Source: Candidatus Levybacteria bacterium RIFCSPHIGHO2_01_FULL_40_16
GTDB taxonomy: Bacteria > Patescibacteriota > Microgenomatia > Levybacterales > UBA12049
NCBI GenBank assembly: GCA_001783805.1
Contig: MFNS01000001.1
Location: forward strand, 192,649 to 256,648
DNA: 64,000 bases
Reading direction: 5' to 3'
A model generated the notes under the pieces. It searched no databases and had not been told where the DNA came from. It saw nothing but the letters and a program-made list of their open reading frames with translations. The position numbers were made by a program, and so were the translations under genes. Positions 39,852 through 64,000 of this stretch are shown one piece after another; positions within the stretch are counted from its first letter, which is position 1; every line of letters begins with the position of its first letter.

Positions 39852-41129
39852 CTAAATAGATTCAGCAGCCAATTTGGTGCGTTCGTATTTGTCTGCCATG
39901 TAGCCGTTGGGAACCGTGGTAAGTTTGTCTGAATATAATAAAAATCCATTGCGGATGGTATGATCGCCAAAACGCTCATTAATAAAATCTACTGTTTGTT
40001 GCAAAGAATTCTGCTTTGCAGAAGAATCAAATAAAGATAGGGGAGTATTGCTTGAGTCCTCTAAACCTGATGCCGTAATTCCAATTTGCCTGACATATTT
40101 AAAATTATTGACATTAACTAAATTGGTTAATAAATCAAACATTTCTTTACCTGTATCAAAATATTTCGTATAAGTTTTTCTTTGATGTAAATTTATGTTT
40201 CCGCCAAAATAATATCCGACAGTCCTGGCTTTTTTATTTAAGCGCCTTAATTTGATGCAAACTTCTTCGCACAATTCATAAATGTTTTGCAGAACAACTT
40301 TTTTATTATATTCGTTTTGGGGCAAACAATAATTCCGTCCCACCGATTTCACTTCCGGAGTCTTAGTGTAGGAACTTAGAACATCTGTGCTTAAGCCTAA
40401 GCCTACTTGATGTAAAAACTCTGCCTCTGCAGAGCCAAATTCCTGAATTAATAATGATAAATTCGCATCCCGTAATTGCAATAGATTGTAAATGCCGATC
40501 TTATTAAGTCTTAATTTTATTCTTTCTCCGATTCCGCAGACATCGGTTAATTTTGCTTTTGCATAAACTGCTCCTAAATTATCCTTGGTAATTTCGAACA
40601 CCCCGTCCGGTTTGTTAATGCTCGATGCCAATTTTGCCAAAAGTTTATTGTGCGAAATGCCAACCGAAACCGTAATATGTTCGCCGATTTTTTCTCTGAT
40701 TTCTTTTTTAAGAAGTTTTATCGTGCTATAAACTCCGCCGAATAAATGATTCGTCAAAGTAATATCCATAAAAACTTCGTCAATTGAGAAAAGTTCGACT
40801 TCCGGAGAAAAGCTTTGACAAATCTTCAAAAACTTCTTTGACACTTCCAGATATTTAACAAAATTAGCCGGAGCAAGATTCAGTGTGGGACAAATTTTCA
40901 GAGCTTCATAAGTTCGGGCTCCTGTTTTAATTCCTAATCTTTTCGCTTCGCGGCTGGAGGCAATAATACAAGTCCTGCCGTTGGTTGCGGTCACTCCGAG
41001 AGGCTTATTGCGCAAAAGGGGATTAAACTGCTGTTCGCAGCTGGCAAAAAAACTGTCAAAATCAATATGTAAAACCCGCCTGCCATCGGCTTTTGCCGAA
41101 GGTAAATGCGGGCAGGTTATTTTTTGCAT
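39852..41129 (-). CDS. dinB: DNA polymerase IV (Y family)
   Basis: LHIDFDSFFASCEQ, SIDE and NKLLAKLAS...KPDG motifs; 42-bp in-frame insert near N-terminus. Confidence 0.93.
   Translation of the reverse strand: MQKITCPHLPSAKADGRRVLHIDFDSFFASCEQQFNPLLRNKPLGVTATNGRTCIIASSREAKRLGIKTGARTYEALKICPTLNLAPANFVKYLEVSKKFLKICQSFSPEVELFSIDEVFMDITLTNHLFGGVYSTIKLLKKEIREKIGEHITVSVGISHNKLLAKLASSINKPDGVFEITKDNLGAVYAKAKLTDVCGIGERIKLRLNKIGIYNLLQLRDANLSLLIQEFGSAEAEFLHQVGLGLSTDVLSSYTKTPEVKSVGRNYCLPQNEYNKKVVLQNIYELCEEVCIKLRRLNKKARTVGYYFGGNINLHQRKTYTKYFDTGKEMFDLLTNLVNVNNFKYVRQIGITASGLEDSSNTPLSLFDSSAKQNSLQQTVDFINERFGDHTIRNGFLLYSDKLTTVPNGYMADKYERTKLAAESI
41075..41116 (-). mobile_element. empty CCTGCCCG...CAGGCGGG mini-element, in frame in dinB
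   Basis: CCTGCCCGCATTTACCTTCGGCAAAAGCCGATGGCAGGCGGG (42 bp); removal gives MQKIILHIDFD. Confidence 0.85.
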
Positions 41130-47226: not shown

Positions 47227-47502
47227 ATGTATAAAGTTTATTTATTGCATAGCCTAAAAGACACAGGGATGTCTTACGTTGGATTAACAATTAAGGAAAT
47301 AGACAAGAGAGTTGAAGAACATAATAAAGGACTATCACAATATACAAAAACATTTAAGCCGTGGAGATTAGTTTATTACGAACTTTTCTATTGCAGAACA
47401 TGTGCCGAAAAAAGAGAACAATTCTTGAAAAGTGGAGTAGGATATCAATTAAGAAAACATCTGCTTACATTTAAGAATTCTTCTTTGAAGAACGGGGGTT
47501 AG
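47227..47502 (+). CDS. small GIY-YIG nuclease; stop overlaps outer tRNA-Pro
   Basis: VYLLHS...SYVGLT...RVEEHN...AEKREQFLKSG. Confidence 0.9.
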   Translation: MYKVYLLHSLKDTGMSYVGLTIKEIDKRVEEHNKGLSQYTKTFKPWRLVYYELFYCRTCAEKREQFLKSGVGYQLRKHLLTFKNSSLKNGG

Positions 47503-47516
47503 CTCAGTTGGCTAGA

Positions 47517-47559
47517 CCTGCCCGCAATTGCCTGGAGCCGATAGCGACTGGCAGGCGGG
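47517..47559 (+). mobile_element. empty 43-bp mini-element in D-arm of outer tRNA-Pro
   Basis: CCTGCCCG...GGCAGGCGGG. Confidence 0.85.
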
Positions 47560-47572
47560 GCGCGCGGTTTGG

Positions 47573-47681
47573 CCCGCCTGACTTGAAATGACGGGGTGTA
47601 GTTCATCGGTAGAACGCTCGGTTTGGGACCGAGAAGCAACAGGTCCAATTCCTGTCACCCCGACAAGTCATTTCGGGCAGG
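47573..47681 (-). mobile_element. 109-bp tRNA-Pro-carrying mini-element in anticodon loop
   Basis: CCCGCCTGACTTG...[tRNA]...CAAGTCATTTCGGGCAGG. Confidence 0.85.
47592..47663 (+). tRNA. inner tRNA-Pro(TGG)
   Basis: CGGGGTG...CTCGG-TTTGGGA-CCGAG...ACAGG-TCCAATT-CCTGT...CACCCCGA. Confidence 0.88.
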
Positions 47682-47777
47682 GACCGTGAGGTCGGAGGTT
47701 CAAATCCTCTACCCCCGACCAAGTTGAGTTTTTATGTGCTAAAATTGAAGTAGTTTACTTCGGATAATTAAAGCGGG

Positions 47778-47812
47778 CCTGCCCGCCGAAGTTCCGAAGG
47801 AACGTAGGCGGG
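47778..47812 (+). mobile_element. empty 35-bp mini-element whose end regenerates the tRNA-Gly 5' end
   Basis: GCGGG|CCTGCCCGCCGAAGTTCCGAAGGAACGTAGGCGGG|TGTAG. Confidence 0.8.
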
Positions 47813-53724: not shown

Positions 53725-55887
53725 ATGATAAAAGTCTCAGTAATTATAATTTCTTATAACAACCTTCATTGCCTAAAAAAAAACTTAGATAGTTTAACTA
53801 ATCAAACCTACGATCATAATGACATCAAAGTAGAATCTATGATAGTAGATAGTGGCTCGAAGACAGATTCGTTAAGAGCTCTACAAAAATATAAGGATAG
53901 GATAAAAATAATTTTAAAACCGCAATTTCTCTCTCGTCTTAGCCCCGCTGAAGCTAGAAATATGGGCGTTCGGAATTCAACTGGAGACATCCTAATCTTT
54001 AGTGATGCAGATTGCATTTTACCCCCTGCTTGGATACAAGACATAGCTGAATGTTTTAAAAACCCAGAGATTGACTGCGTTATGGGATCCCGAGAACCAG
54101 ATAAAGGACAAGGGCTGGGAACTATTATTAGGCGATTCAGCTTCATTCTGTATTCAAACAAATTTAGCATCCAGGAGTCCACGATAATTAACCAGAAGAA
54201 CCTAGATAAAGGCGAACCGCTTATTTTATTAAGTGGAAATAACTTTGCGATTAAAAAGAAAATATGGCTTAAGCTCGGTGGTATGAAAACCATTTTTAAA
54301 AACCCGGCAGGAGAAGATGTAATGCTGGAAAATGATCTGATTAAAAATAGCTATACAATTCTGTTCAATCCATTTATCAAAATTATTCACTTCCACCCAA
54401 TTTCTTTAGTAAATTTATTTAAAAAATGCATATATGGCGGAGAAGCAAGTTACGTTATTAGCAGATATCCAGATAGCTTAATTAGCTACAAATATTTTAT
54501 AGAACGTGGTCACCTTTTATCGTTTGGCACTTTCATTTTTATCATATTATTCATAATTTTTGCTACGTCAATGATTGTTTTAGATAAAATATCTTTTCTT
54601 TTTATATTATTTATTTTGTTTCTACTGACATCCACAGTCACATTTAGACTGATTAAACTTAAAAAAAAATTATCAGCAATTTTAATTACAAAAGGAAAGC
54701 AATATGAAACCAAATATAGTCTATCTACATTCCAATTGTCTTATTTTGGCTTAATTCATTTTATTGCAAAAACTATAACCCTCATAAGCTTCTTGAGATG
54801 CTATCTGTTTGACGGTCTATCTACACTTGATCTTCTTTTGAAAAACAAAAGCAATGACTATACGAGAGAAGCAAGGCGATTTCACAAAAAAACAGGACTA
54901 GACCTTCTTAGGGGACATGATAAGAATGTGCGAATTACTACGAGTTGCAGCATAATAATCCCTTTTTGCAATAATTATTTTTTCTTAAAAAAAAGTTTAC
55001 GCGCACTTTGCAATCAAATATTTCCAGTCAATTTTAAATTAAGCAAGATAGAAATAATTATTATCAACGACGGATCGCCTATTTGTTTAGAAAAACTCGT
55101 GACGCAGGCTGCAAAAGTTTATTCAACGACTTATTTGAAGCTGAAAAAGAATTACGGCGCTGCTACTGCTAGGAACTTAGGTTTACTTTATGCAAAAAAC
55201 GAGGTAGTCTTTTTTTTAGATGAAGATATGGTAGTCCCTAATGACTTCATTGTCAGCCATCTATTGAGACATATTTTCTTAAAAGATTGCATAATAGTCG
55301 GCTTCCGCCAAAACATTAGTTTAAGGAATCTTAATTTACGCACAAATCGTCTGGATAAAATTATTGCCGTTACCCCTAATTACAAAAATGATTTTAGATA
55401 TAAAAGATTTGTTCCTCAAGAATGGTCTGGCATTTATAGAAATGTCCCTGTCGATAATTTCAACAAAGAATATTATCCTTTAATAAATAGTAGATTTTTT
55501 AGAGACTATGGGAAAGGGAAGCTTATTGGGGTTTGGGATCTCCCATCAATGTTTTTGTCATGCAATGTTAGCGTACGAAGGAGACATATTACAGAATTAG
55601 GAGGATTTGACATGAGGTTTAAGAATTGCGGAATGGAAGATGTCCACTTGGGGGCAAAATTAATCGCTAAGGGTTTATATCTTATACCAAACCTCCATGC
55701 TACAGCTTATCACCTAGTTGATGTTGATTCTAATAGTAAGCAGAGAACGTCAATTGCAGACTATGAGAGAAAACTTGACTTATATTACAACCTGAGAAAT
55801 GAGGCATTGATTATCTTTAAGCGCAATCAGTGGCTAAAGCAAATGAGAAATTATTTTGCAAATAAGTTTGACGTTATTTACTCGTAA
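53725..55887 (+). CDS. double GT2 glycosyltransferase with central TM segments
   Basis: Two GT-A domains (VDSGS/ARN/SDAD/GED and INDGS/ARN/LDED/MED). Confidence 0.85.
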   Translation: MIKVSVIIISYNNLHCLKKNLDSLTNQTYDHNDIKVESMIVDSGSKTDSLRALQKYKDRIKIILKPQFLSRLSPAEARNMGVRNSTGDILIFSDADCILPPAWIQDIAECFKNPEIDCVMGSREPDKGQGLGTIIRRFSFILYSNKFSIQESTIINQKNLDKGEPLILLSGNNFAIKKKIWLKLGGMKTIFKNPAGEDVMLENDLIKNSYTILFNPFIKIIHFHPISLVNLFKKCIYGGEASYVISRYPDSLISYKYFIERGHLLSFGTFIFIILFIIFATSMIVLDKISFLFILFILFLLTSTVTFRLIKLKKKLSAILITKGKQYETKYSLSTFQLSYFGLIHFIAKTITLISFLRCYLFDGLSTLDLLLKNKSNDYTREARRFHKKTGLDLLRGHDKNVRITTSCSIIIPFCNNYFFLKKSLRALCNQIFPVNFKLSKIEIIIINDGSPICLEKLVTQAAKVYSTTYLKLKKNYGAATARNLGLLYAKNEVVFFLDEDMVVPNDFIVSHLLRHIFLKDCIIVGFRQNISLRNLNLRTNRLDKIIAVTPNYKNDFRYKRFVPQEWSGIYRNVPVDNFNKEYYPLINSRFFRDYGKGKLIGVWDLPSMFLSCNVSVRRRHITELGGFDMRFKNCGMEDVHLGAKLIAKGLYLIPNLHATAYHLVDVDSNSKQRTSIADYERKLDLYYNLRNEALIIFKRNQWLKQMRNYFANKFDVIYS

Positions 55888-55926
55888 TCCTACTTAGATT
55901 CGCCAAATTTTACTTTTTAGTTAGTG

Positions 55927-55997
55927 CTGCGGGACTAGGAATCGGACCTAGATTAGAGGATCCAAAGTCCTCCGTCCTACCATTAAACGATCCCGCA
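55927..55997 (-). tRNA. tRNA-Gln(TTG)
   Basis: TGCGGGA...GAGGA-CTTTGGA-TCCTC...TCCCGCAG. Confidence 0.9.
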
Positions 55998-56089
55998 ACG
56001 TAAAATTTGCACCCGCAAATCACGTTGCTGGCCAAGTCAGGCTTGGCCGCAATATTCAAAATTATATCATAAAGTCGAATTTTGATATA

Positions 56090-56482
56090 ATGAACAGTAT
56101 GACTGAAATATTAAGGAATCAAAATCTTGTCAAAATAGATCTTGAATTAATAGATGAATTAAATGTTTTCTATCTGGAATATTCAAGAAAAAGAGGCTTT
56201 CCTGATGCATTTTGTACCCAAATTAGTCACGACGTAGCTAACAATTTAAAATTAGACTATCAAGAAGGTACCTTCCGACTAGACAAACCAAACAGAAGTG
56301 GAATCACTAATCCAACATATGCATGGTGTACGGACGCGGATAAAATTATTATAGATCTAACACTCCATCAATTTAAGCCTTATTTAAATCCTGATGTTAA
56401 AATTTTTATTGGAGGTCCTCATATTATACGTCCCAACCAACCTCTTTATAAAAGATATTCACCCCTTAATAAACTTCATTAA
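56090..56482 (+). CDS. hypothetical protein
   Basis: 130-aa ORF; C...YAW...IIDLT resembles a papain/transglutaminase-like fold. Confidence 0.5.
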   Translation: MNSMTEILRNQNLVKIDLELIDELNVFYLEYSRKRGFPDAFCTQISHDVANNLKLDYQEGTFRLDKPNRSGITNPTYAWCTDADKIIIDLTLHQFKPYLNPDVKIFIGGPHIIRPNQPLYKRYSPLNKLH

Positions 56483-56483
56483 G

Positions 56484-56957
56484 TTATCTGCTGTAGAGAC
56501 CGATTAATTCTGATTTGTCAATAATATGGCCTTGCATTTCTTTTTCCAAGGTCTCCTTGCCTGGATTGTTTAAATTTAAAACTACATCCAAAGAGTAGAG
56601 CTTGAAGAAATATCGGTGGGTGCCGGATGGCTCGCCCGCTAACGCCTGAGCGTAGCGATGGCGAACGGGGGGACAGGGTCCGCCATAACTCTTTTTACCA
56701 AAACTTGTTGTCGCTTCAATTCCGCCTTTTGGAACACTATTTTCCGCAATTTCCACGGTATTTGGGTCAATATTAAATACAATCCAATGGATCCATGTTC
56801 CGCCCGGCGCATCCGGATCATCCATGATTAAGACTAAACTTTTGGCATTTGTGGGAATTTCAAGAAAAGACAGCGGGGGATTTATATTCTCCCCATCGCA
56901 GGTATATTTGGAAGGTATTTTGGAATTATTTTCAAAAACAGAACTTATTATTTTCAC
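56484..56957 (-). CDS. YbhB/YbcL (PEBP) family protein
   Basis: YTCDGENINPPL, DDPDAP, WIHW and GPCP[insert]PSGTHRY motifs. Confidence 0.92.
   Translation of the reverse strand: MKIISSVFENNSKIPSKYTCDGENINPPLSFLEIPTNAKSLVLIMDDPDAPGGTWIHWIVFNIDPNTVEIAENSVPKGGIEATTSFGKKSYGGPCPPVRHRYAQALAGEPSGTHRYFFKLYSLDVVLNLNNPGKETLEKEMQGHIIDKSELIGLYSR
56631..56669 (+). mobile_element. degenerate 39-bp mini-element, in frame in YbhB gene
   Basis: CTCGCCCG...GCGAACGGG; removal restores GPCPPSGTHRY. Confidence 0.75.
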
Positions 56958-56960
56958 GTG

Positions 56961-57031
56961 AGCGGGGTACGAGAATTGAACTCGCTTCTCTACCTTGGCA
57001 AGGTAGCATACTACCGGTGTACTAACCCCGC
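56961..57031 (-). tRNA. tRNA-Gly(GCC)
   Basis: CTACC-TTGCCAA-GGTAG anticodon arm; full cloverleaf. Confidence 0.9.
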
Positions 57032-57036
57032 TTGTG

Positions 57037-57109
57037 TGCCGAGAGCAGGAATCGAACCCGCATAACCGCTTCTTCAGAGCGGCGCCTTGACCTCGTTGGC
57101 AATCTCGGC
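57037..57109 (-). tRNA. tRNA-Phe(GAA)
   Basis: GCCGAGA...CCGCT-CTGAAGA-AGCGG...TCTCGGCA. Confidence 0.9.
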
Positions 57110-57547
57110 CTATTTAATTTTTTGCAATCTCCTGTATGTCCTGTCCCTATGACAATTAGCGCATACCAAGTCGCATTTTGCTATTTCTTCCTTTATTTTA
57201 TCAAATTTTACTAATTTTCGAAAGGTGAGAAACGAAATGCTTGCCACCTTTTTCTTTCCATCACGATGATCGAAATCCATCACCCATGCAGGGTATTTCT
57301 TCCCGCAGTCAAAGCATGGCTTGTTTTTAATTTTTCCCAAAAACTCCTTACGCTCTACTATGTATTTTAGTTTTCTTTTTTTGGCTAGATATAGCTGTCG
57401 CTCTCTGTTTTGATGATAATAATTTTTTCCGCGGATTTTATAACAATCTTTGCATTTTTCGTAATACTCACCAGCCCTTAAACCGCTTTTTCTTCTATAA
57501 AAATCTTTCAATTCCTTACTCAATCCACACTTCGAACATTTTTTCAT
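57110..57547 (-). CDS. HNH endonuclease with zinc fingers
   Basis: CSKC, CKDC, CFDC...MDFDH...KCDLVCANCH; stop abuts tRNA-Phe. Confidence 0.88.
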   Translation of the reverse strand: MKKCSKCGLSKELKDFYRRKSGLRAGEYYEKCKDCYKIRGKNYYHQNRERQLYLAKKRKLKYIVERKEFLGKIKNKPCFDCGKKYPAWVMDFDHRDGKKKVASISFLTFRKLVKFDKIKEEIAKCDLVCANCHRDRTYRRLQKIK

Positions 57548-57590
57548 TTATAATTTATAATAAACCGTAGTGAGTCGAAATGCAACTTTT

Positions 57591-57636
57591 TTCTTCAGAC
57601 GGAGAGGAAATCATTGACCGACTTGGCTACCTCGGC
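57591..57636 (-). pseudogene. 5' remnant of a tRNA-Phe
   Basis: GCCGAGGTAGCCAAGTCGGTCAA...CCGTCTGAAGA; no 3' half found. Confidence 0.65.
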
Positions 57637-57729
57637 ATGTATAAATGCTGTTGCTAGAATAATGTTAACTACCCAATGTCCTATTATTTACTAAAGCATG
57701 TATCTTTTACAAAAATTATTTATACATGC

Positions 57730-57987
57730 CTAGGCATGATCATTCCAGTCTTTTAATCTTTTCCGCAAATAACTTTTGCCCAAACGAGTTTTGAGATATT
57801 TTTCTCTACGATAAGCATCAATTTCGCTTAGGCTGGCTTCGTAGTATATTATATCAAATGGAGCATATGGGCTGGTAGACTTAACCATTTTCTCATTATG
57901 CTCTCTAAATCTTCCTCTTAAATCATTAGTACATCCTGTATACAGAAATTTTCTGGACGTACTTTTTAAAACATAAACGTAAAACAT
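57730..57987 (-). CDS. small GIY-YIG nuclease directly 3' of outer tRNA-Val
   Basis: MFYVYVLKS...LYTGCTNDLRGRFREHN...AYRREKYLK. Confidence 0.9.
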   Translation of the reverse strand: MFYVYVLKSTSRKFLYTGCTNDLRGRFREHNEKMVKSTSPYAPFDIIYYEASLSEIDAYRREKYLKTRLGKSYLRKRLKDWNDHA

Positions 57988-58041
57988 CTTGTGGACTCTA
58001 GAGGATTTGAACCTCTGACATCTTCGATGTAAACGAAGCGC

Positions 58042-58150
58042 CCGGCCTGACTGGACTTTGTGGACCCGAGAGGATTCGAACCTCTGACCTTCTCAGTGTA
58101 AATGAGACGCTCTACCAACTGAGCCACGGGTCCATTCAAAGTCGGGCAGG
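58042..58150 (-). mobile_element. 109-bp tRNA-Val-carrying mini-element in D-arm
   Basis: CCTGCCCGACTTTGAAT-[tRNA]-CAAAGTCCAGTCAGGCCGG. Confidence 0.85.
58061..58133 (-). tRNA. inner tRNA-Val(TAC)
   Basis: GGACCCG...TCTCA-TTTACAC-TGAGA...GGTTCGAATCC...CGGGTCCA. Confidence 0.93.
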
Positions 58151-58196
58151 TCTACCGCTGAGCTAAGAGTCCAGGGTGGACTTAATGATGTCCAGA

Positions 58197-59321
58197 TTGA
58201 ACCAATTATAGCAGATTTTGAGAGGCTAAGGTTAGCTTTTCAACTTAATTACCATTAGAGAATAGAAATTCAGTAATCCTGGTTTGGGATATTTATACCT
58301 TATCAACGGGTTTAGGATTTATTATTATAACCTGTAATTTGTCGAATAAGTTTGTTAGTGAGGGGTCTTCCGGGCCATTACCTTCAATAAAGGAGCTATA
58401 CGTTTGTGATTTTTCGTCCCATTCTATATTTCCATGGGGCAAGTCACGACCTAGAATTGAATAGAAAATATATAATTTTTTTTGAGTATCTGGTCTAGAA
58501 ATCGTTTCGAGCCACCTTTCATCCCTGTCATCCGACGATTCATATCCAGAGTGATACGTAGATGTATTTTCATGTTTAAATTTGTAGTCAGGATGACCTT
58601 TTAGAAATTTTTCAACTGCCGTTTTAATCCTATCTCCTACCGGTTTTGTCGGATCATCTTCGGGGTCGTCTTTTTCTGCATTCAGTTTCAATTTTTCTGG
58701 GCTCATCCGTCTAACTTCGTCAAGTGTAAATTTTTGGTTTGGTGCAGCGTAAGCTTCCAGAATTTTGTTAGCACACATCTCATCTAGAGCAAATGGACCA
58801 TCAAAAGACTCATCATTTAAATATGAGCCTTCTATCCATGTTCTATGTGAAATAACTGCCCATTCATTTCTATTTTTAACCCAAATAAAGATCAATTCAT
58901 AATCCTCATTCATTACTGCTAATCGTTCTCTTTTTATTGAGATAGCAGAATGACCTAAAACGGCCGTTTCTTGAGCGGGTAATCTCATTAAGGAATCGTA
59001 TTCCTTGGTTACCCATGGCGGGAGAGTGGAAAAGGTTGCATTTTCAGAAATTTGGATAATATTATCTCCATAAGAGCTGGTGTCTGGTCTACTTCTTACC
59101 CAATCACTCTTGCCAAAATTAATTTCAATTATCTTTTCTCGCTCTTCAGTCATTTCTGGGGGAATTATATTACCATAAGTTTTGAAAGTCAAATCATTCC
59201 TTGTCGCACAAGCTTTATTGAGACGTGGTTTTAAAGCTAAACAGCGTCATATACATACTGGTGGGCTTAGCGATGCTCAACTTGAACCAATTATAGCAGA
59301 TTTTGAGAGGCTAAGGTTAGC
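58197..59321. repeat. perfect 40-bp direct repeat containing an extended -10 element, flanking a hypothetical gene
   Basis: TTGAACCAATTATAGCAGATTTTGAGAGGCTAAGGTTAGC at 58197-58236 and 59282-59321. Confidence 0.9.
58293..59192 (-). CDS. hypothetical protein (start uncertain)
   Basis: 299-aa acidic ORF; no motif recognised. Confidence 0.6.
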   Translation of the reverse strand: MTFKTYGNIIPPEMTEEREKIIEINFGKSDWVRSRPDTSSYGDNIIQISENATFSTLPPWVTKEYDSLMRLPAQETAVLGHSAISIKRERLAVMNEDYELIFIWVKNRNEWAVISHRTWIEGSYLNDESFDGPFALDEMCANKILEAYAAPNQKFTLDEVRRMSPEKLKLNAEKDDPEDDPTKPVGDRIKTAVEKFLKGHPDYKFKHENTSTYHSGYESSDDRDERWLETISRPDTQKKLYIFYSILGRDLPHGNIEWDEKSQTYSSFIEGNGPEDPSLTNLFDKLQVIIINPKPVDKV

Positions 59322-59350
59322 ATTTGACAAGATAACTTGCATGAATTCAT

Positions 59351-59713
59351 TTATAAATTATCTATAATCTCACCTAGTCTATCCATTTCTCTTTTGGAAA
59401 CATTTGCATCGGCGCCATCAATACCTTCAATTGAGTTCGATAAGCCAACTGTCTTTATTTTTGGTTTTCTTTTACGTATCTCATCAGCCAAAAGCTGACC
59501 TTCGCCGCCTACCCAGCTTAATTTCCCATCAAGTGTAATTACTTGGATTCCTAATTTGTCTACTTCGCCTCCACGAATCTTTCCTAGAGCATCAAAGAAC
59601 TCGTTGCTTGTCAGAACCACCTTATGACCCGCTTTTTCTAATACCTGTTTAATTCCATCCTGATAATATTTGTCGTCTTCAACGACAAATATTCTTGCTT
59701 CTTTTGGCGACAT
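59351..59713 (-). CDS. orphan receiver-domain protein
   Basis: VVEDD, ITLDGKL, GLS and VSK motifs; resembles 39436-39807. Confidence 0.7.
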   Translation of the reverse strand: MSPKEARIFVVEDDKYYQDGIKQVLEKAGHKVVLTSNEFFDALGKIRGGEVDKLGIQVITLDGKLSWVGGEGQLLADEIRKRKPKIKTVGLSNSIEGIDGADANVSKREMDRLGEIIDNL

Positions 59714-59733
59714 ACTATTTTTTAAAAAAAGAT

Positions 59734-59818
59734 TGGTGGGCCCGAGAGGACTTGAACCTCCACTCCTTTCGGAATACGCACCTCAAGCGTACGCGTATAC
59801 CAATTCCGCCACGAGCCC
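59734..59818 (-). tRNA. tRNA-Leu(GAG)
   Basis: TACGC-TTGAGGT-GCGTA anticodon arm; variable arm; encoded CCA. Confidence 0.95.
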
Positions 59819-59835
59819 AAACTTGTCTAATTATA

Positions 59836-60123
59836 TCATTTATCGATCTTGACTTCGGGATATATCAAGCTAACATTAGTTATTTGTCTTTTGGGATGAT
59901 CCAAATATTCTCTCCAAAATTCTTCTCCGAATATCAGAACTTTTGAGCAAGGACCAACATGAATCGTTTCCTCTGCCATTCCTGTTTTAGCTTTCACAAC
60001 CCCACCCATTCCTTGCGTATAGCCAATAACTTCAAGATTGACTAAGCCACAACCCCTATCTTCTATTTGAAATGTTTTTGAATTCAAATAAAGGCTTCCT
60101 GTTTTCTCAGAAGAAATAGTCAT
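59836..60123 (-). CDS. hypothetical protein
   Basis: 95-aa ORF between two tRNA-Leu genes. Confidence 0.45.
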   Translation of the reverse strand: MTISSEKTGSLYLNSKTFQIEDRGCGLVNLEVIGYTQGMGGVVKAKTGMAEETIHVGPCSKVLIFGEEFWREYLDHPKRQITNVSLIYPEVKIDK

Positions 60124-60156
60124 AAGTATAAATTCTTAGTGCCCAGGGGGAGATTC

Positions 60157-60198
60157 CCTGCCCGCCATCAGCTGTCGCCTCAGGCGACTGCAGGCGGG
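60157..60198 (+). mobile_element. empty 42-bp mini-element in T-loop of outer tRNA-Leu
   Basis: CCTGCCCGCCATCAGCTGTCGCCTCAGGCGACTGCAGGCGGG. Confidence 0.85.
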
Positions 60199-60242
60199 GA
60201 ACTCCCAAGCCCTTGCGGACACAGCGTTCTGAACACTGCATG

Positions 60243-60351
60243 CCCGCCTGCCAGAGTGCCCCAAGAGGGACTCGAACCCTCACGTCCTTGCGGACACAGC
60301 GTTCTGAACACTGCATGTCTACCATTCCATCATCGGGGCACGGCGGACAGG
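60243..60351 (-). mobile_element. 109-bp tRNA-Leu-carrying mini-element in D-arm
   Basis: CCTGTCCGCCGT-[tRNA]-CTCTGGCAGGCGGG. Confidence 0.85.
60257..60339 (-). tRNA. inner tRNA-Leu(CAG)
   Basis: GCCCCGA...CAGTG-TTCAGAA-CGCTG...GGTTCGAGTCC...TTGGGGCA. Confidence 0.92.
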
Positions 60352-60440
60352 TCTACCATTTCATCACCTGGGCGCATGTTGATTTTACCAGAAGCAGTTT
60401 TACTTGACAACAATGACAAAAAATGCGATTATGATAGACA

Positions 60441-61019
60441 ATGAGAAAGATACTTCTGTCTACCTCTTTCTTTATACTTACACCCATCTTACTTTTCGCA
60501 AGTATAATTTATTTCCTCTTTTTGTCCTATGATTCCAAGCTTCACAATAACTTAACTGGTCAAAGCTCAAACCGCGGTGTAGCATTTGCGGCCTTGCCCT
60601 CGGTTGAAAATGTGCTGGGAGACAGCATTGTCTTCAAGGACATAAGAGTAGAAATAGTCAAGCAATTTTTTGCAAAATATAAATCCCCACTTGAGTCATT
60701 TGCTCAAAATGTTGTTGAAGATGCGGATAAATATGATCTTGATTATAGGCTCTTACCGGCAATAGCCATGCAGGAATCGAATCTATGCAAAAAAATTGTC
60801 ACAGATTCATATAATTGCTGGGGGTTTGGAATCTATGGCAAGAAGGTAACCAGATTCGAAAGCTATCCTGAAGCAATTAGTACAGTGACCAAGACCCTAG
60901 CGAACAATTATATGGCAGGAGGCTTAAATACGCCTGAAGAAATTATGAAAAAATACACTCCCTCCAATAACGGAGCGTGGGCCGAGAGTGTCAACTACTT
61001 CATGAGCCTGCTTCAATAA
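60441..61019 (+). CDS. lysozyme-like/glucosaminidase domain protein
   Basis: ADKYDLDYRLLPAIAMQES...NCWGFG motif. Confidence 0.75.
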   Translation: MRKILLSTSFFILTPILLFASIIYFLFLSYDSKLHNNLTGQSSNRGVAFAALPSVENVLGDSIVFKDIRVEIVKQFFAKYKSPLESFAQNVVEDADKYDLDYRLLPAIAMQESNLCKKIVTDSYNCWGFGIYGKKVTRFESYPEAISTVTKTLANNYMAGGLNTPEEIMKKYTPSNNGAWAESVNYFMSLLQ

Positions 61020-61110
61020 TATCCTATAGCCAGCACCTCGCTTGATTTCGCCTATGACACCTCTTTATTTAACTGACTAATCGATTGAACAATTCGCCGG
61101 TTGGCGGGAC

Positions 61111-61139
61111 TTGACAAACCTATAGTTCCATGATATACT
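61111..61139 (+). promoter_or_regulatory. sigma70 promoter
   Basis: TTGACA-17bp-TATACT. Confidence 0.65.
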
Positions 61140-61288
61140 TCCACCTTAGATCCTAAGGTATGCCTTTCCAAATGCATACGTTAGGATTTTTTTATTCTGC
61201 AAAGCAGAATAACCCGCCGACCAATCGCACCGTGAGCCGTCTACGAATAGTAGTGGAAAGGCAAACGGAAAGATTAGGCGGGTGCATT

Positions 61289-61840
61289 ATGAACACAATA
61301 TTTGTTTTTATATTTTCATTAATTTTATTTTTTTTATCTAACGGTAAAACTGTTTTTGCGCAGGAAATATTTGCGGGTTCTTCCGCTGCGCTTTTAAAGC
61401 CGGTTGTTCAAAAAGCAACCGACAGTCGCGTAAGAATTTTAAGAGAATATTTAGAAAAATATAATTCTCCTTTGGTTCCATATGCTGCGACTTTCGTAGA
61501 TACCGCAGATAAATATAATTTGGATTGGAAATTGGTCGCTGCAATTTCCGGAGTTGAATCTACTTTTGGCCGCCAGATTCCTCCTGATTCTTTCAATGGA
61601 TGGGGATGGGGAATTTATGGGAACAATATGATCAGATTTTCTTCTTGGAATGAGGGAATTGAAACGATTTCTGAAGGATTAAGAACCAAATACATCGATA
61701 AATGGGGAGCAAGAAATGTATATGAAATCGGCAGATTTTACGCTGCTTCTCCTACCTGGGCTCAAAGAGTTGAATACTTCATGAATTCCATAGGGAATTT
61801 TGAGACTTTAAGCCTGGCGAATCTATCCATTTCTCTGTAA
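61289..61840 (+). CDS. lysozyme-like/glucosaminidase domain protein (paralog of 60441)
   Basis: Signal peptide from MNTIF; ADKYNLDWKLVAAISGVESTFG...NGWGWG. Confidence 0.75.
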   Translation: MNTIFVFIFSLILFFLSNGKTVFAQEIFAGSSAALLKPVVQKATDSRVRILREYLEKYNSPLVPYAATFVDTADKYNLDWKLVAAISGVESTFGRQIPPDSFNGWGWGIYGNNMIRFSSWNEGIETISEGLRTKYIDKWGARNVYEIGRFYAASPTWAQRVEYFMNSIGNFETLSLANLSISL

Positions 61841-61927
61841 GCCTCGAACCTTCTTCTCTTAGAATTTCTGAAGCACGCATCGAGTTTGAAGGTGCGGGGT
61901 AAATTGTGTATAATGTCTAAAATATAC

Positions 61928-62010
61928 GCGGATGTGGCGAAATGGTAGACGCGATAGGTTTAGGACCTATTGACCGCAAGGTCTTGGGGGTTCGAGTCCT
62001 CTCATCCGCA
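61928..62010 (+). tRNA. tRNA-Leu(TAG)
   Basis: ATAGG-TTTAGGA-CCTAT anticodon arm; variable arm. Confidence 0.93.
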
Positions 62011-62019
62011 CTCTAAATT

Positions 62020-62898
62020 ATGAATAAAAATGTTACTACGGCTCTACAAAAAGAGCCCAACGGAACAATCCGTCTGACAATTACGATTCCGGCTGTTGAC
62101 GTCAAAAAAACCTGGGAAGAGGTAATGCTTGAGGTTGCAAAGAATGCGGAAGTTCAGGGCTTTAGAAAAGGAAAAGCACCCAGAAAATTAGTTGAAGAAA
62201 AAGTTGATAAAGAAAAGATTAGGGAAGAAGTTTTGAAAAAGCTTTTACCAATCGCCTATACGGAAGCTGTTAAGTCCCAAGGAATAAAGCCAATTATAAA
62301 TCCCAAGATTCATGTTGAGAAGATCGACGATCCGTCGACCCTGAGCGAGCAAAGCGAGTCGAAGGGTTGGCAATTTACCGCTTTAACTTGTGAAGCTCCG
62401 ATTATCAAATTGGGTAAATATAAAGAAGCTATTCAAATAATTACGGCAAAAAGTAAAATTATCTTACCTGGAAATCCGCCAGCCGGCGGACCCATACCTG
62501 CCAAATTTGAGGATATCGTGAAAGCTTTATTGGATAACGTCACCGCTGAAATACCTTCAATTCTGATTGACAATGAAACCGACAGGCTTTTATCCCAGAC
62601 CCTGGAAGATGTTAAAAAACTTGGCTTAACGCTTGATCAATATCTGTCTTCAACCGGTAAAAATCCGCAAATCTTAAGAGAAGAGTATAAGAAAAAAGCG
62701 GAAAATGATGTTAAATTGGAATACACGCTTTCCAAAATTGCGGAAGAAGAAAAGATCACAGTTGAAGAAAAAGAAATTGAAGAGGCGGTAAGAGCCAGTA
62801 AGAGCGATGATGAAAGAAAGAATTTGGAAGCTAACCGGTATCTTCTGGCCAGTATCCTAAGGCAACAAAAAACACTTGATTTCCTCAAGAATTTGTGA
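62020..62898 (+). CDS. tig: trigger factor lacking the FKBP/PPIase domain
   Basis: GFRKGKAP ribosome-binding motif and C-terminal domain; only 292 aa. Confidence 0.88.
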   Translation: MNKNVTTALQKEPNGTIRLTITIPAVDVKKTWEEVMLEVAKNAEVQGFRKGKAPRKLVEEKVDKEKIREEVLKKLLPIAYTEAVKSQGIKPIINPKIHVEKIDDPSTLSEQSESKGWQFTALTCEAPIIKLGKYKEAIQIITAKSKIILPGNPPAGGPIPAKFEDIVKALLDNVTAEIPSILIDNETDRLLSQTLEDVKKLGLTLDQYLSSTGKNPQILREEYKKKAENDVKLEYTLSKIAEEEKITVEEKEIEEAVRASKSDDERKNLEANRYLLASILRQQKTLDFLKNL

Positions 62899-62913
62899 TA
62901 AGGTAATCCCGCT

Positions 62914-63510
62914 ATGAAAAAGTCAAAAAGCAAGGTAAAACACGTAAAAAACCCGCTGGAGGAATTACTTAATCTGGACGATATCCTTGGATTTTCCAAA
63001 ACTTCGGAAAAACAGAAAAAAAATCAGGAAACAGTGTTGGTTGAGGGCCAAGAGGTAAGTCTCGCAGAGCTTCAAGAGATAAATTCGTCAGCTGTTGAAG
63101 AAAAAAAAGAAGAGAAAATAGTAATAGAACCAGGCATTAATTATTCCGCAGACATAATCCATTCAGAAGAGAAGGCAATCAGCCGTGAAAACCGGGAAAT
63201 TGAAGTGCAGTTGCAGGAAATAATGACCGAAATTAAAAAATTAGCTGACAGCTCCAAGGAATTGCAAATGCAATTTAAAGAAGTTGCAGTCGAGCAATAC
63301 GTAGTAAAACCCGGAAAATATCACAAGAACTTTTTCTCATGGCTTCTCTCCATAGTTAAAGCTGCGAGAATGAAGGTTGAAGATTCCGGCGCATGGCTGG
63401 CGGCAATGCACAGCAAGAAAAAATCAAAAGAGTATTGGGCAATGAGTAAAAAAGCCGGAACATCTTTCAGCCTTTCCAACGAAAGAAATGTTGCCACCCA
63501 AGTTGGATAA
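62914..63510 (+). CDS. conserved hypothetical protein (DUF5660-like)
   Basis: PGKYHKNFF...SGAWL...YW...GTSFSLSNER..ATQ. Confidence 0.6.
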   Translation: MKKSKSKVKHVKNPLEELLNLDDILGFSKTSEKQKKNQETVLVEGQEVSLAELQEINSSAVEEKKEEKIVIEPGINYSADIIHSEEKAISRENREIEVQLQEIMTEIKKLADSSKELQMQFKEVAVEQYVVKPGKYHKNFFSWLLSIVKAARMKVEDSGAWLAAMHSKKKSKEYWAMSKKAGTSFSLSNERNVATQVG

Positions 63511-63558
63511 GCAATCTATTGCAAAAAGAAAAAGGATACTATAAAATTTAATTATTAA

Positions 63559-63624
63559 ATGAATAAGCAAAATAGATCGATTATTGAAATTATTGCTTCC
63601 CAAGAGGGAGGTGTGCTTGCGTAA
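63559..63624 (+). CDS. Ile-rich leader peptide MNKQNRSIIEIIASQEGGVLA
   Basis: Four ATT codons within five; lies upstream of a terminator and cimA. Confidence 0.7.
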   Translation: MNKQNRSIIEIIASQEGGVLA

Positions 63625-63646
63625 CTTAAATTAATTACGAAACACT

Positions 63647-63671
63647 AGCCTCCCCAACGGGAGGTTTTTTT
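63647..63671 (+). terminator. attenuator terminator hairpin
   Basis: GCCTCCC-CAAC-GGGAGGT followed by a T-tract. Confidence 0.8.
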
Positions 63672-63683
63672 ATGTCTTAAATT

Positions 63684-64000
63684 ATGAAAGAAAGATTTAT
63701 AAAAATATATGATACAACTCTGAGGGATGGTGCCCAAACGCCTGGCTTAACGCTGACAACAGGCAATAAATTAAAAATCGCTCAAAAACTTGCAGATCTT
63801 GGTTTTCATTATATCGAGGGTGGATGGCCCGGAGCAAATCCGACAGACTCCGAATTTTTTAAACGAATAAAGCAGGAGGTTGACCTTAATAACTCAACTC
63901 TTGCTGCTTTTGGAATGACGGGAAGAATAGGAATAAAAGCAGAGGATGACGAAGGACTTCAAACATTACTAAATAGCCAAACCGGATTGATAACCATTTT
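63684..64000 (+). CDS. cimA: citramalate synthase (LeuA/CimA family), 3'-truncated by window edge
   Basis: IYDTTLRDGAQ...YIEGGWPGANPTD...AAFGMT; the GGWPG.NP.D motif is typical of CimA. Confidence 0.85.
   Translation, partial: MKERFIKIYDTTLRDGAQTPGLTLTTGNKLKIAQKLADLGFHYIEGGWPGANPTDSEFFKRIKQEVDLNNSTLAAFGMTGRIGIKAEDDEGLQTLLNSQTGLITI

Follow-up and report, generated by a model that had tools for sequence, protein, structure and literature searches.

The described systems closest to the locus reported here are families of short palindromic repeats. Repetitive extragenic palindromic sequences (REPs) are short imperfect palindromes with a 4-nt tag, which occur in many copies, do not duplicate their target, are in some cases intragenic, and are handled as single strands by RAYT tyrosine transposases, as set out in the accessible part of the source (PMC3733652). 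Here, we describe a complete tRNA-Leu(CAG) gene nested in a second tRNA-Leu(CAG) gene, located in a 64,000-nt stretch of DNA (hereafter the window, i.e., the whole stretch analyzed; contig MFNS01000001.1, positions 192,649 to 256,648, assembly GCA_001783805.1) of Candidatus Levybacteria bacterium RIFCSPHIGHO2_01_FULL_40_16. The host is a Candidate Phyla Radiation bacterium, with a genome of 0.9 Mb in 7 contigs, 37–44% G+C, rated 98.9% complete. The trigger factor that it encodes shows 86% and 80% identity to the proteins of assemblies assigned to Candidatus Levybacteria. The inner tRNA (the cargo) lies in the loop of a REP-like, palindrome-ended element, which splits the outer gene (the shell). 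We consider it rather likely that this element, carrying a foreign-type tRNA-Leu(CAG), broke the native gene and replaced it at the DNA level.

As in REPs, the element is a tagged imperfect palindrome of 33–45 nt (the tag CCTG followed by CCCGCC..GGCGGG, which folds as a DNA hairpin), it is present in many copies (20 in the genome under a strict pattern and 38 when one mismatch is allowed per end), and it produces no target duplication. The genome also has a Y1_Tnp/RAYT-like gene, although its role in element movement is only that of a candidate. Unlike REPs, the tag is CCTG rather than the published GTAG or CGTC, most copies here are intragenic and in frame instead of extragenic, and a whole tRNA may occupy the loop of an element sited in the cognate tRNA gene, an arrangement that the available portion of the REP source does not describe (PMC3733652). 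Rickettsia palindromic elements (RPEs) share with our element the presence of a palindromic repeat in frame in protein genes (7/7 copies here, and 19/20 copies of one subfamily at 42 nt). However, RPEs are 100–150 bp long and belong to another lineage, and neither a tRNA cargo nor nesting in a cognate tRNA is described for them in the accessible text (PMC1779305). By analogy, the empty elements would behave like intragenic REPs and RPEs.

A second group of comparable systems involves nucleases. SegB of phage T4 is a free-standing GIY-YIG homing endonuclease encoded in a tRNA gene cluster; as far as the accessible text goes, it works between co-infecting phages and leaves no nested gene (PMC2330249). 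The likeness lies in selfish DNA that is aimed at tRNA genes and that, in the part of the SegB source available, replaces the tRNA region of a rival with its own; small GIY-YIG genes also adjoin two further shells of the window, those of tRNA-Val and tRNA-Pro. Unlike SegB, the Leu locus has no nuclease gene, and its unit is of ~110 nt, with palindromic ends and only a tRNA inside. Ssn proteins are single-domain GIY-YIG nucleases that, according to the accessible text, cut single-stranded DNA beside the hairpin repeats NTS/SRM (PMC11893778). Small single-domain GIY-YIG genes and a multi-copy hairpin repeat likewise occur together in this genome, and at the tRNA-Asn locus a nuclease gene lies between two element copies. 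Unlike in the Ssn system, the element flanks only a minority of the GIY-YIG genes of this genome, and the published SRM pattern has 0 matches in the genome (mean of 2.3 in mononucleotide shuffles), with both elements of the Leu locus and the empty element of the Pro locus unmatched.

Archaeal intron-containing, split, and permuted tRNA genes are broken in the D, anticodon, or T loop, and a mobile-element origin has been proposed in the part of the source available (PMC3293823). The locus described here resembles them in its breaks at loop positions and in the tRNA fragments that stand beside a complete gene. In the archaeal case, EndA and a ligase splice the interruption out of the RNA at bulge-helix-bulge motifs, whereas the host here is a bacterium without EndA/RtcB or such a motif, and the insert contains a complete tRNA with the same anticodon.

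Integrase-driven islands and prophages enter the 3' end of tRNA genes and restore that end with their own copy. Our element also enters a tRNA gene and brings sequence that keeps a working tRNA; unlike it, those islands carry an integrase and duplicate only a 3' fragment, while the 109-nt insert of the Leu locus contains no integrase gene and no open reading frame (ORF) and holds a full tRNA within the split gene. As an analogy, the replacement logic recalls both T4 SegB and integrase-type islands. Full-text literature searches, which had subscription journals and supplements outside their coverage, brought up no paper in which one tRNA gene is nested in another and none on tRNA-carrying palindromic elements in these bacteria. 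The combination that they did not turn up is that of a ~110-nt palindromic mini-element with a whole tRNA as sole cargo in the matching gene, stackable, shared between genera, and in this case rewritten through conversion by its own shell.

Anatomy of the nested locus

The outer tRNA-Leu(CAG) spans 60373..60140 on the minus strand (234 nt) and consists of three pieces of 22, 44, and 17 nt, kept apart by two inserts (22 + 109 + 44 + 42 + 17 nt; details in Table 1). The larger insert, element 1 (60351..60243), has CCTGTCCGCC as its first letters and GGCAGGCGGG as its last ones, and its insertion point falls between position 21 of the D-loop and position 22 of the D stem, the boundary being defined to within 1 nt. 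Its cargo is a complete tRNA-Leu(CAG) without an encoded CCA, and it is the sole Leu(CAG) gene that ARAGORN and Rfam report at the locus. The smaller insert, element 2, has the same ends but reversed and contains only a small hairpin (DNA fold of −13.3 to −14.5 kcal/mol, z about −3); its 42-nt subfamily is also present in other genera. A preliminary description of the locus had proposed a tRNA-Leu(CAG) shell around a cargo with a nearly identical anticodon region and a second, empty element in the T-loop (TTC^GAA); the minus-strand reading, ARAGORN, and Rfam bear out the former, and element 2 is the latter.

The inner and outer tRNAs had also been described as sharing an exact sequence and differing in their acceptor and T stems, and both observations hold. 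The shared sequence is a 32-mer, whose second copy (60242..60211) opens the middle piece of the outer gene. We compared the genome studied (G000) with a set of 245 genomes of the order, in which G002–G006 belong to the same genus and G237 to another one: the exact 32-mer has two copies at the locus, none elsewhere in the 0.9-Mb genome, and occurs in 3 other genomes of the set. After in silico joining of the outer gene, the identical stretch extends to 41 nt. The stems of each tRNA are self-consistent, with acceptor GCCCAGG/CCTGGGC and T stem GGGAG/CTCCC in the outer one, and acceptor GCCCCGA/TTGGGGC and T stem GAGGG/CCCTC in the inner one. When both inserts are excised in silico, the result is an 83-nt tRNA-Leu(CAG) with perfect acceptor and T stems, accepted by ARAGORN.

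A promoter-like site upstream of the outer tRNA (60382..60410) is the only one on the minus strand ahead of the cargo, and none lies directly before the inner gene. The RNA fold of the 234-nt precursor was discarded as a guide to processing: the two 32-mers mispair, so it is uninformative.

The nested structure is not an assembly artefact. A chimera of tRNA genes from two strains could be suspected from the facts that the genome was assembled from a metagenome and that contigs of other runs break at the 32-mer repeat. However, all junctions are bridged by contigs of at least 97% likeness in two to four runs (element 2 in four, the right junction of element 1 in three and the left one in two), the 32-mer forms a separate unitig at about twice the depth of its neighbors, and dozens of other genomes show the same nested layout, which makes such a chimera extremely improbable. 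Furthermore, in run X4 a contig of a more abundant, co-occurring close relative joins 60241 to 60351, skipping exactly 109 nt, and thus represents an empty site without target duplication. The element boundaries are precise and duplication-free. Reads recruited over 14 kb at 90% likeness were mostly tRNAs of other organisms; the one informative item among them was a Pro-type joint of a relative, which was uninterrupted.

A native shell around a mosaic cargo

In the same-genus genomes G002–G006, an uninterrupted Leu(CAG) gene is followed directly by Leu(GAG), and the tight cluster continues with Val(TAC) in four of the five. The promoter motif found upstream of the nested locus also precedes the uninterrupted Leu(CAG) in G002–G004 and G006; in G005, the motif is separated from a complete Leu(CAG) by a 17-nt relic and a 137-nt insert. 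The joined outer gene is 93.0–95.3% identical to the same-place gene of G002–G005 and 86.0% to that of G006, and its acceptor and T stems are those of the same-genus native genes. The identity of the inner tRNA to the Leu(CAG) of G002–G006 is 79.1–85.7%. Since the outer gene is closer than the inner one to the uninterrupted genes of the genus, the comparison of sequences identifies the outer tRNA-Leu(CAG) as the native gene of the cell.

The cargo has its counterparts elsewhere. When the 109-nt element was searched against the 245 genomes, a full-length match was found in G237, where Leu(CAG) is split at the same position (GGTATA^CACGC) by an element in the same orientation and with near-identical linkers, CCTGGCCGCCGT and, at the other end, CTATGGTAGGCGGG. 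The same cargo type occurs with degenerate element arms in G107, in a decayed shell, and in G023, where the old gene is reduced to a 10-nt 5' relic. The last 29 nt of the cargo studied are identical to those of the G237 cargo (29/29) and nearly so to those of G107 and G023 (28/29), against 19/29 for its own shell; for the first 13 nt the corresponding values are 12/13, 11/13, and 10/13. For the central 41 nt the order is reversed, with 41/41 matches to its own shell against 31/42 to the G237 cargo and 27–29/42 to those of G107 and G023.

These comparisons show the cargo, at the level of sequence, to be a mosaic, in which cassette-type ends and linkers surround a host-type 41-nt center, i.e., the pattern of gene conversion. 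Indeed, a center that matches the shell completely and the three other cassette copies so poorly would have been overwritten by host sequence, and the 32-mer has its left edge right at the element–shell junction, as expected if the downstream shell half was the donor. Cargo position 10 is A here and C in the other cassette copies; the change from C to A restores the pair with the converted T25 and can be read as compensatory. The sequence of events could thus have been a conversion of the cargo center from the downstream shell half, after which the change at position 10 re-made the 10:25 pair. A shared 32-mer explained by a conserved core alone was rejected: the exact sequence occurs in only 4/245 genomes and the three other cassette copies differ in the center. 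What fits conversion less well is that the donor was itself split by the cargo, so that one tract covers the 32-mer and not the identical 9 nt of the D-loop; these 9 nt may simply be conserved. On the conversion reading, the locus is a clean natural case of a cargo converted by the very gene that it broke.

The preliminary description had argued against simple tandem duplication and for a cargo coming from a close relative or for gene conversion. The two alternatives hold together, the first being supported by the cassette-type ends and linkers and by the tree, and the second by the host-type center. In a maximum-likelihood tree of 27 tRNA-Leu(CAG) rows, whose alignment of 84 columns limits its resolution, the inner copy grouped with the cargos of other genomes (Shimodaira–Hasegawa-like approximate likelihood ratio test, SH-aLRT, 93) and the outer copy with the same-genus native genes (SH-aLRT 81); thus, inner and outer copies do not cluster within their genome. 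A local duplication of the cell's own tRNA-Leu(CAG), whose copies were later parted by palindromic repeats and diverged at their ends, would account for the 41 identical central nt, the same anticodon, and the same direction. We regard it as highly improbable because the cargo ends and linkers match the cassettes of G237, G107, and G023 (28–29/29) and the host gene only at 19/29, because the tree places the inner copy with foreign cargos, and because same-genus relatives have one uninterrupted gene.

As regards the comparison with phage tRNAs, suggested together with the tree, no phage link was found. In the phage collection there was only generic tRNA-Leu similarity (75–79%). The pattern of element ends gave at least 120 matches in viral contigs, none with a tRNA inside among the matches listed; the absence of a tRNA and the median G+C of 65% of the listed viral loci indicate chance matches.

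A further chimeric tRNA was observed in G003 (L004, G003:C10), where a Val(TAC) gene by Leu(GAG) combines an acceptor stem of native type with an interior of cargo type. It contains no element, and its acceptor is imperfect at the 3' end. It may be a footprint of recombination between cargo and shell.

Recurrence of the layout and proposed routes of gene replacement

The genome contains four tRNA-in-loop versions of the element (Leu-CAG, Val-TAC, Pro-TGG, and Val-CAC). At the Val(TAC) and Pro(TGG) loci of the window (Table 1), the anticodon stems of the inner and outer tRNAs differ, as had been noted before. Two more loci of the genome present the same elements differently arranged. At tRNA-Asn (G000:C7:98780-99420), a 5' relic with an element is followed by a GIY-YIG gene, a full tRNA-Asn, and a 5'-truncated copy with the same element; at tRNA-Arg (G000:C7:169563-169711), a 5' relic with an empty element is followed directly by a full tRNA-Arg(CCG). 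These arrangements are other layouts of the same process.

Table 1. Features of the nested Leu(CAG) locus and of its Val(TAC) and Pro(TGG) counterparts, with positions in the window
Feature	Position	Strand	Description
Promoter-like site	60382..60410	-	TTGTCA, 17 nt, TAAAAT with TG; just upstream of outer tRNA
Outer (native, shell) tRNA-Leu(CAG), 5' piece	60352..60373	-	Acceptor 5' strand, D stem, D-loop to ..GGTAGA
Element 1	60243..60351	-	109 nt; left end + linker CCTGTCCGCCGT, cargo tRNA, linker + right end ..CTCTGGCAGGCGGG
Inner (cargo) tRNA-Leu(CAG), complete	60256..60339	-	ARAGORN; Rfam tRNA 49.2 bits
32-mer copy in cargo	60286..60317	-	D stem 3' strand, anticodon arm, most of variable arm
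Outer tRNA-Leu(CAG), middle piece	60199..60242	-	D stem 3' strand, anticodon arm, variable arm, T stem 5' strand, TTC
Element 2, empty	60157..60198	-	42 nt; opposite orientation to element 1, in outer T-loop GTTC^GAAT
Outer tRNA-Leu(CAG), 3' piece	60140..60156	-	Rest of T-loop, T stem 3' strand, acceptor 3' strand, discriminator A
Outer tRNA-Val(TAC)	57992..58172	-	Split after GGTAGA by 109-nt element 58042..58150; inner tRNA-Val(TAC) 58060..58133
GIY-YIG gene beyond Val shell	57730..57987		
Outer tRNA-Pro(TGG)	47493..47718	+	Empty 43-nt element in D-loop (47517..47559)
Pro(TGG) anticodon-loop element	47573..47681	+	109 nt; inner tRNA-Pro(TGG) 47592..47664
GIY-YIG gene just upstream of Pro shell	47227..47502		

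The same layout recurs for many tRNA species in related genomes, and shells elsewhere decay. A pattern of two element ends 85–105 nt apart was found in 47/245 genomes, and the reversed pattern in none (0). Among the 62 distinct element-bounded stretches in the fetched loci, 56 hold a tRNA. Excision restores a junction-spanning tRNA in 36 of these 56; each of the 36 runs in the direction of its cargo and 31 agree with it in anticodon, the five mismatched shells being of the same tRNA type with the anticodon or the anticodon arm mutated. With the addition of the Val and Pro copies of this genome to the 56 order-wide cargo stretches, we obtained a set of 58 elements: excision gives back the same anticodon in 32 shells and a changed one in 5, another 5 shells are restored after the removal of further empty elements, and 16 are not restored, although their flanks still resemble matching tRNA loops by eye. 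The insertion points of the 58 elements fall in the anticodon loop (38), at the D-loop ..AGA^ site (17), at position 9/10 (2), and in the T-loop (1), and both orientations occur (38 vs 20).

Visibly decayed shells were found in G006 (Val) and in G091, G107, and G189 (Leu). Nesting can also be repeated: in G123 (L065, C36:6495-7397), three Val(CAC) genes are nested, each inner one in the anticodon loop of the next, with enclosing elements in opposite orientation and a mutated anticodon in the outermost gene. Relics were also observed beside other inserts: 10–35-nt 5' relics of Leu(CAG), Leu(GAG), Thr(TGT), and Thr(GGT), in G005 (L003), G137 (L092), and G225 and G025 (L296/L297), are followed by an insert of 70–140 nt and then by a full tRNA, some of the inserts belonging to other families (e.g., with the start CCCAGCAC). 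The replacement of tRNA genes thus does not appear to be limited to a single type of cassette.

A new kind of bacterial tRNA intron would leave a similar picture: the elements, filled or empty, would be excised at the RNA stage, and both tRNAs would function once the outer halves had been ligated. Non-canonical archaeal tRNA introns sit in the D, anticodon, and T loops, and the insertions described here are precise, lack target duplication, and fall in the same three loops; moreover, the two ends of the element are able to pair, the outer Leu gene shows no damage apart from the inserts, and 32 of the 58 shells still fold with the right anticodon after one excision. Against splicing, in the genome rated 98.9% complete there were 0 matches to the splicing endonuclease EndA (PF01974; control positive in 4 archaea) and 0 to the RNA ligase RtcB (PF01139; control positive in 10 genomes). 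A bulge-helix-bulge is absent by inspection at the junctions, which stand at the foot of a continuous helix and not in bulges, the first and last bases of the insert pairing together. As to group I introns, which in tRNA genes measure some hundred nt and occupy the anticodon loop, a scan of 55000-64000 by Rfam E-value returned tRNAs and weak unrelated matches only; the inserts here lie in the T loop (42 nt) and in the D loop (109 nt), and the shorter one could not accommodate a group I core.

The copies in protein genes also speak against an intron. The seven copies deep inside long ORFs measure 33, 36, 36, 36, 39, 39, and 75 nt, all multiples of three and without stops, and read P-A-R-N-A-S..A-G-G or L-P-A-I..W-Q-A-G; among the 20 copies of the element-2 subfamily from other genomes, 14 lie in open frames of at least 100 codons. 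Copies in tRNA context measure 40, 42, 43, and 45 nt. If the element were removed from the mRNA, the protein-gene copies would have no need to stay in frame and open, which argues that it is not spliced. Furthermore, shell anticodons mutate, shells gain further inserts, and arms decay around an intact cargo. The empty element at the D-loop site has 9 matches in the 245 genomes, 7 of them in tRNA context, and at all 7 loci an intact tRNA with the same anticodon is present as cargo, next door, or elsewhere in the genome (G237 His); all 45 anticodons of the genome studied are represented by single-copy intact genes (ARAGORN). Thus, no sole-copy tRNA with an empty element was found among the 45 anticodons here and the 7 loci of the set. 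An intron is therefore quite unlikely, and from these sequence features we read the locus as DNA-level gene replacement.

In such a replacement, only the cargo is likely to work, and the split outer gene is likely a dead relic. The element would move as DNA, probably in the form of a single-stranded hairpin on which a REP-type tyrosine (HUH) transposase or a hairpin-specific nuclease would act in trans, with a preference for the loop-coding parts of tRNA genes. Only insertions whose cargo replaces the destroyed single-copy gene would survive; the match between cargo and shell in anticodon and direction could then reflect selection, because a single-copy gene needs a replacement that is read from the shell promoter. 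The cargo would be transcribed from that promoter and released by RNase P and 3' processing, and its CCA would be supplied by the CCA-adding enzyme. The redundant shell could then collect further inserts (here element 2) and finally decay. An RNase P RNA was found at full length (44.8 bits, below the gathering score), together with a match to the CCA-adding enzyme family; the genome is thereby equipped to process a cargo that lacks CCA out of a longer transcript.

As a candidate for the transposase, the Y1_Tnp protein is of 234 aa with a HUH-like motif, and its gene lies beside rplA (Y1_Tnp 44.2 bits, cut-off 23). Element copies lie 400–1900 nt to one side of the gene, inside rplA and rplK. 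The small GIY-YIG proteins of the genome are further candidates for the mobilizing enzyme; proteins related to this type cut single-stranded DNA at hairpin repeats (PMC11893778). A tagged hairpin of 33–45 nt, in frame in essential genes, points to an enzyme acting on single-stranded DNA hairpins.

Several observations sit uneasily with replacement by a mobile element of this kind. The outer Leu gene is undamaged except for the two inserts, which fits a gene still in use as well as a recent event; the loop-only insertion points, and the pairing of element ends that brings the flanks together, look intron-like. All cargo elements (58/58, of which 16 by eye) are in a cognate tRNA context and none is intergenic, which selection alone explains less easily than targeting; their absence outside cognate tRNA genes leaves room for a targeting mechanism. 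The model gives no account of how a tRNA gene first entered the loop of an element. As regards the enzymes, the Y1_Tnp protein scores 35.7 vs a cut-off of 80 for the NCBIfam family REP_Tyr_transpos, a GIY-YIG gene lies within 400 nt at only 5 of the 25 cargo loci with at least 2 kb of sequence, and the Leu locus has none nearby.

The main rival for the mobility step is homing, which would still be gene replacement at the DNA level but by another route: a GIY-YIG or HNH nuclease would cut the uninterrupted tRNA gene, repair would copy the invaded allele with the shell halves as homology arms, and the palindromic ends would be incidental or the site of the nuclease. The Leu cassettes of G000 and G237, which share insertion site, element orientation, and both linkers, are consistent with this. 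The genome has 11 small GIY-YIG (PF01541) genes, 7 of them beside tRNA genes; two abut the Val and Pro shells, one stands between two elements at the Asn locus, and an HNH gene is present at 57110..57547. The 5/25 cargo loci with a GIY-YIG ORF within 400 nt can also be counted in favor of homing, as can the chimeric tRNAs (the center of this cargo and the Val of G003), which are the expected product of repair from a diverged template. In the accessible text on T4, the GIY-YIG enzyme SegB recognizes a tRNA T-loop motif and drives the inheritance of a tRNA region (PMC2330249).

However, one Val(CAC) cassette with identical linkers is placed in the D-loop by two genomes, while a third genome has it in the anticodon loop, and a Val linker family also occurs at both sites; the same cassette at two loop sites favors a transposition-like movement over copying by flanking homology. 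In addition, 20 of the 25 cargo loci, plus the Leu locus, are without a nearby GIY-YIG gene, and empty elements with the same ends are found across protein genes, where there is no tRNA homology. We judge homing unlikely, and transposition-like gene replacement by the cargo element is retained as the preferred reading.

Beyond this locus, we tentatively propose, with somewhat less than even confidence, an undescribed class of mobile elements in ultra-small bacteria: hairpin-ended transposons of ~110 nt, with a complete tRNA as sole cargo, nestable and able to cross genera, that enter matching tRNA genes at loop-coding positions, take over their function, and serially overwrite them, and whose cargo can be rewritten by conversion from the broken gene. 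tRNA genes are among the most stable genes known, and here a native one is probably disabled and the likely working copy is the passenger of a tiny mobile element. If this is true, tRNA identity in reduced genomes would turn over through selfish gene replacement, which would bear on the reading of tRNA trees of Candidate Phyla Radiation bacteria, on tRNA annotation, as standard finders report the inner gene only, and on the origin of interrupted and split tRNA genes in general.

Neighboring genes and other element copies

A 95-aa ORF (59836-60123, minus strand) lies between the Leu(CAG) shell and tRNA-Leu(GAG), 16–17 nt from each, and matched no family in Pfam, NCBIfam, or PHROGs. As Leu(CAG) and Leu(GAG) are only 20–60 nt apart in same-genus relatives, this ORF is an insertion. 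The HNH endonuclease gene, on the minus strand, encodes 145 aa (phrog_2255, E 2.9e-32) and stands directly upstream of tRNA-Phe. Same-genus relatives have a compact form of this tRNA cluster, which here is filled by the HNH gene, the GIY-YIG gene beyond the Val shell, and two ORFs without a family match in the libraries searched.

As regards the tRNA set of G000, ARAGORN called only one tRNA with a CAT anticodon plus one Ile(TAT). In the 7 contigs, ARAGORN detected no further tRNA-Met, so that initiator and elongator are not represented separately; the second gene may be unassembled or interrupted.

Other copies of the element touch protein genes. In the window, a dinB-like (polymerase IV) reading frame of 426 codons carries an in-frame 42-nt element (41075-41116) at its fifth codon. 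In its intron mode, ARAGORN called a "tRNA-Glu" with an 811-nt intron at 40030-40934, a false call inside the dinB-like gene. On another contig (L303, G000:C4:18000-21000), the ribosomal protein L1 gene (344 codons) contains two in-frame copies, a further element overlaps the start of the L11 gene, and the Y1_Tnp (RAYT-like) gene lies directly downstream. Finally, a 35-nt copy of the element (47778-47812, plus strand) abuts the 5' end of the sole tRNA-Gly(TCC) gene, with GCGGG on both sides of it, so that the start of the tRNA can be read before or after the element.

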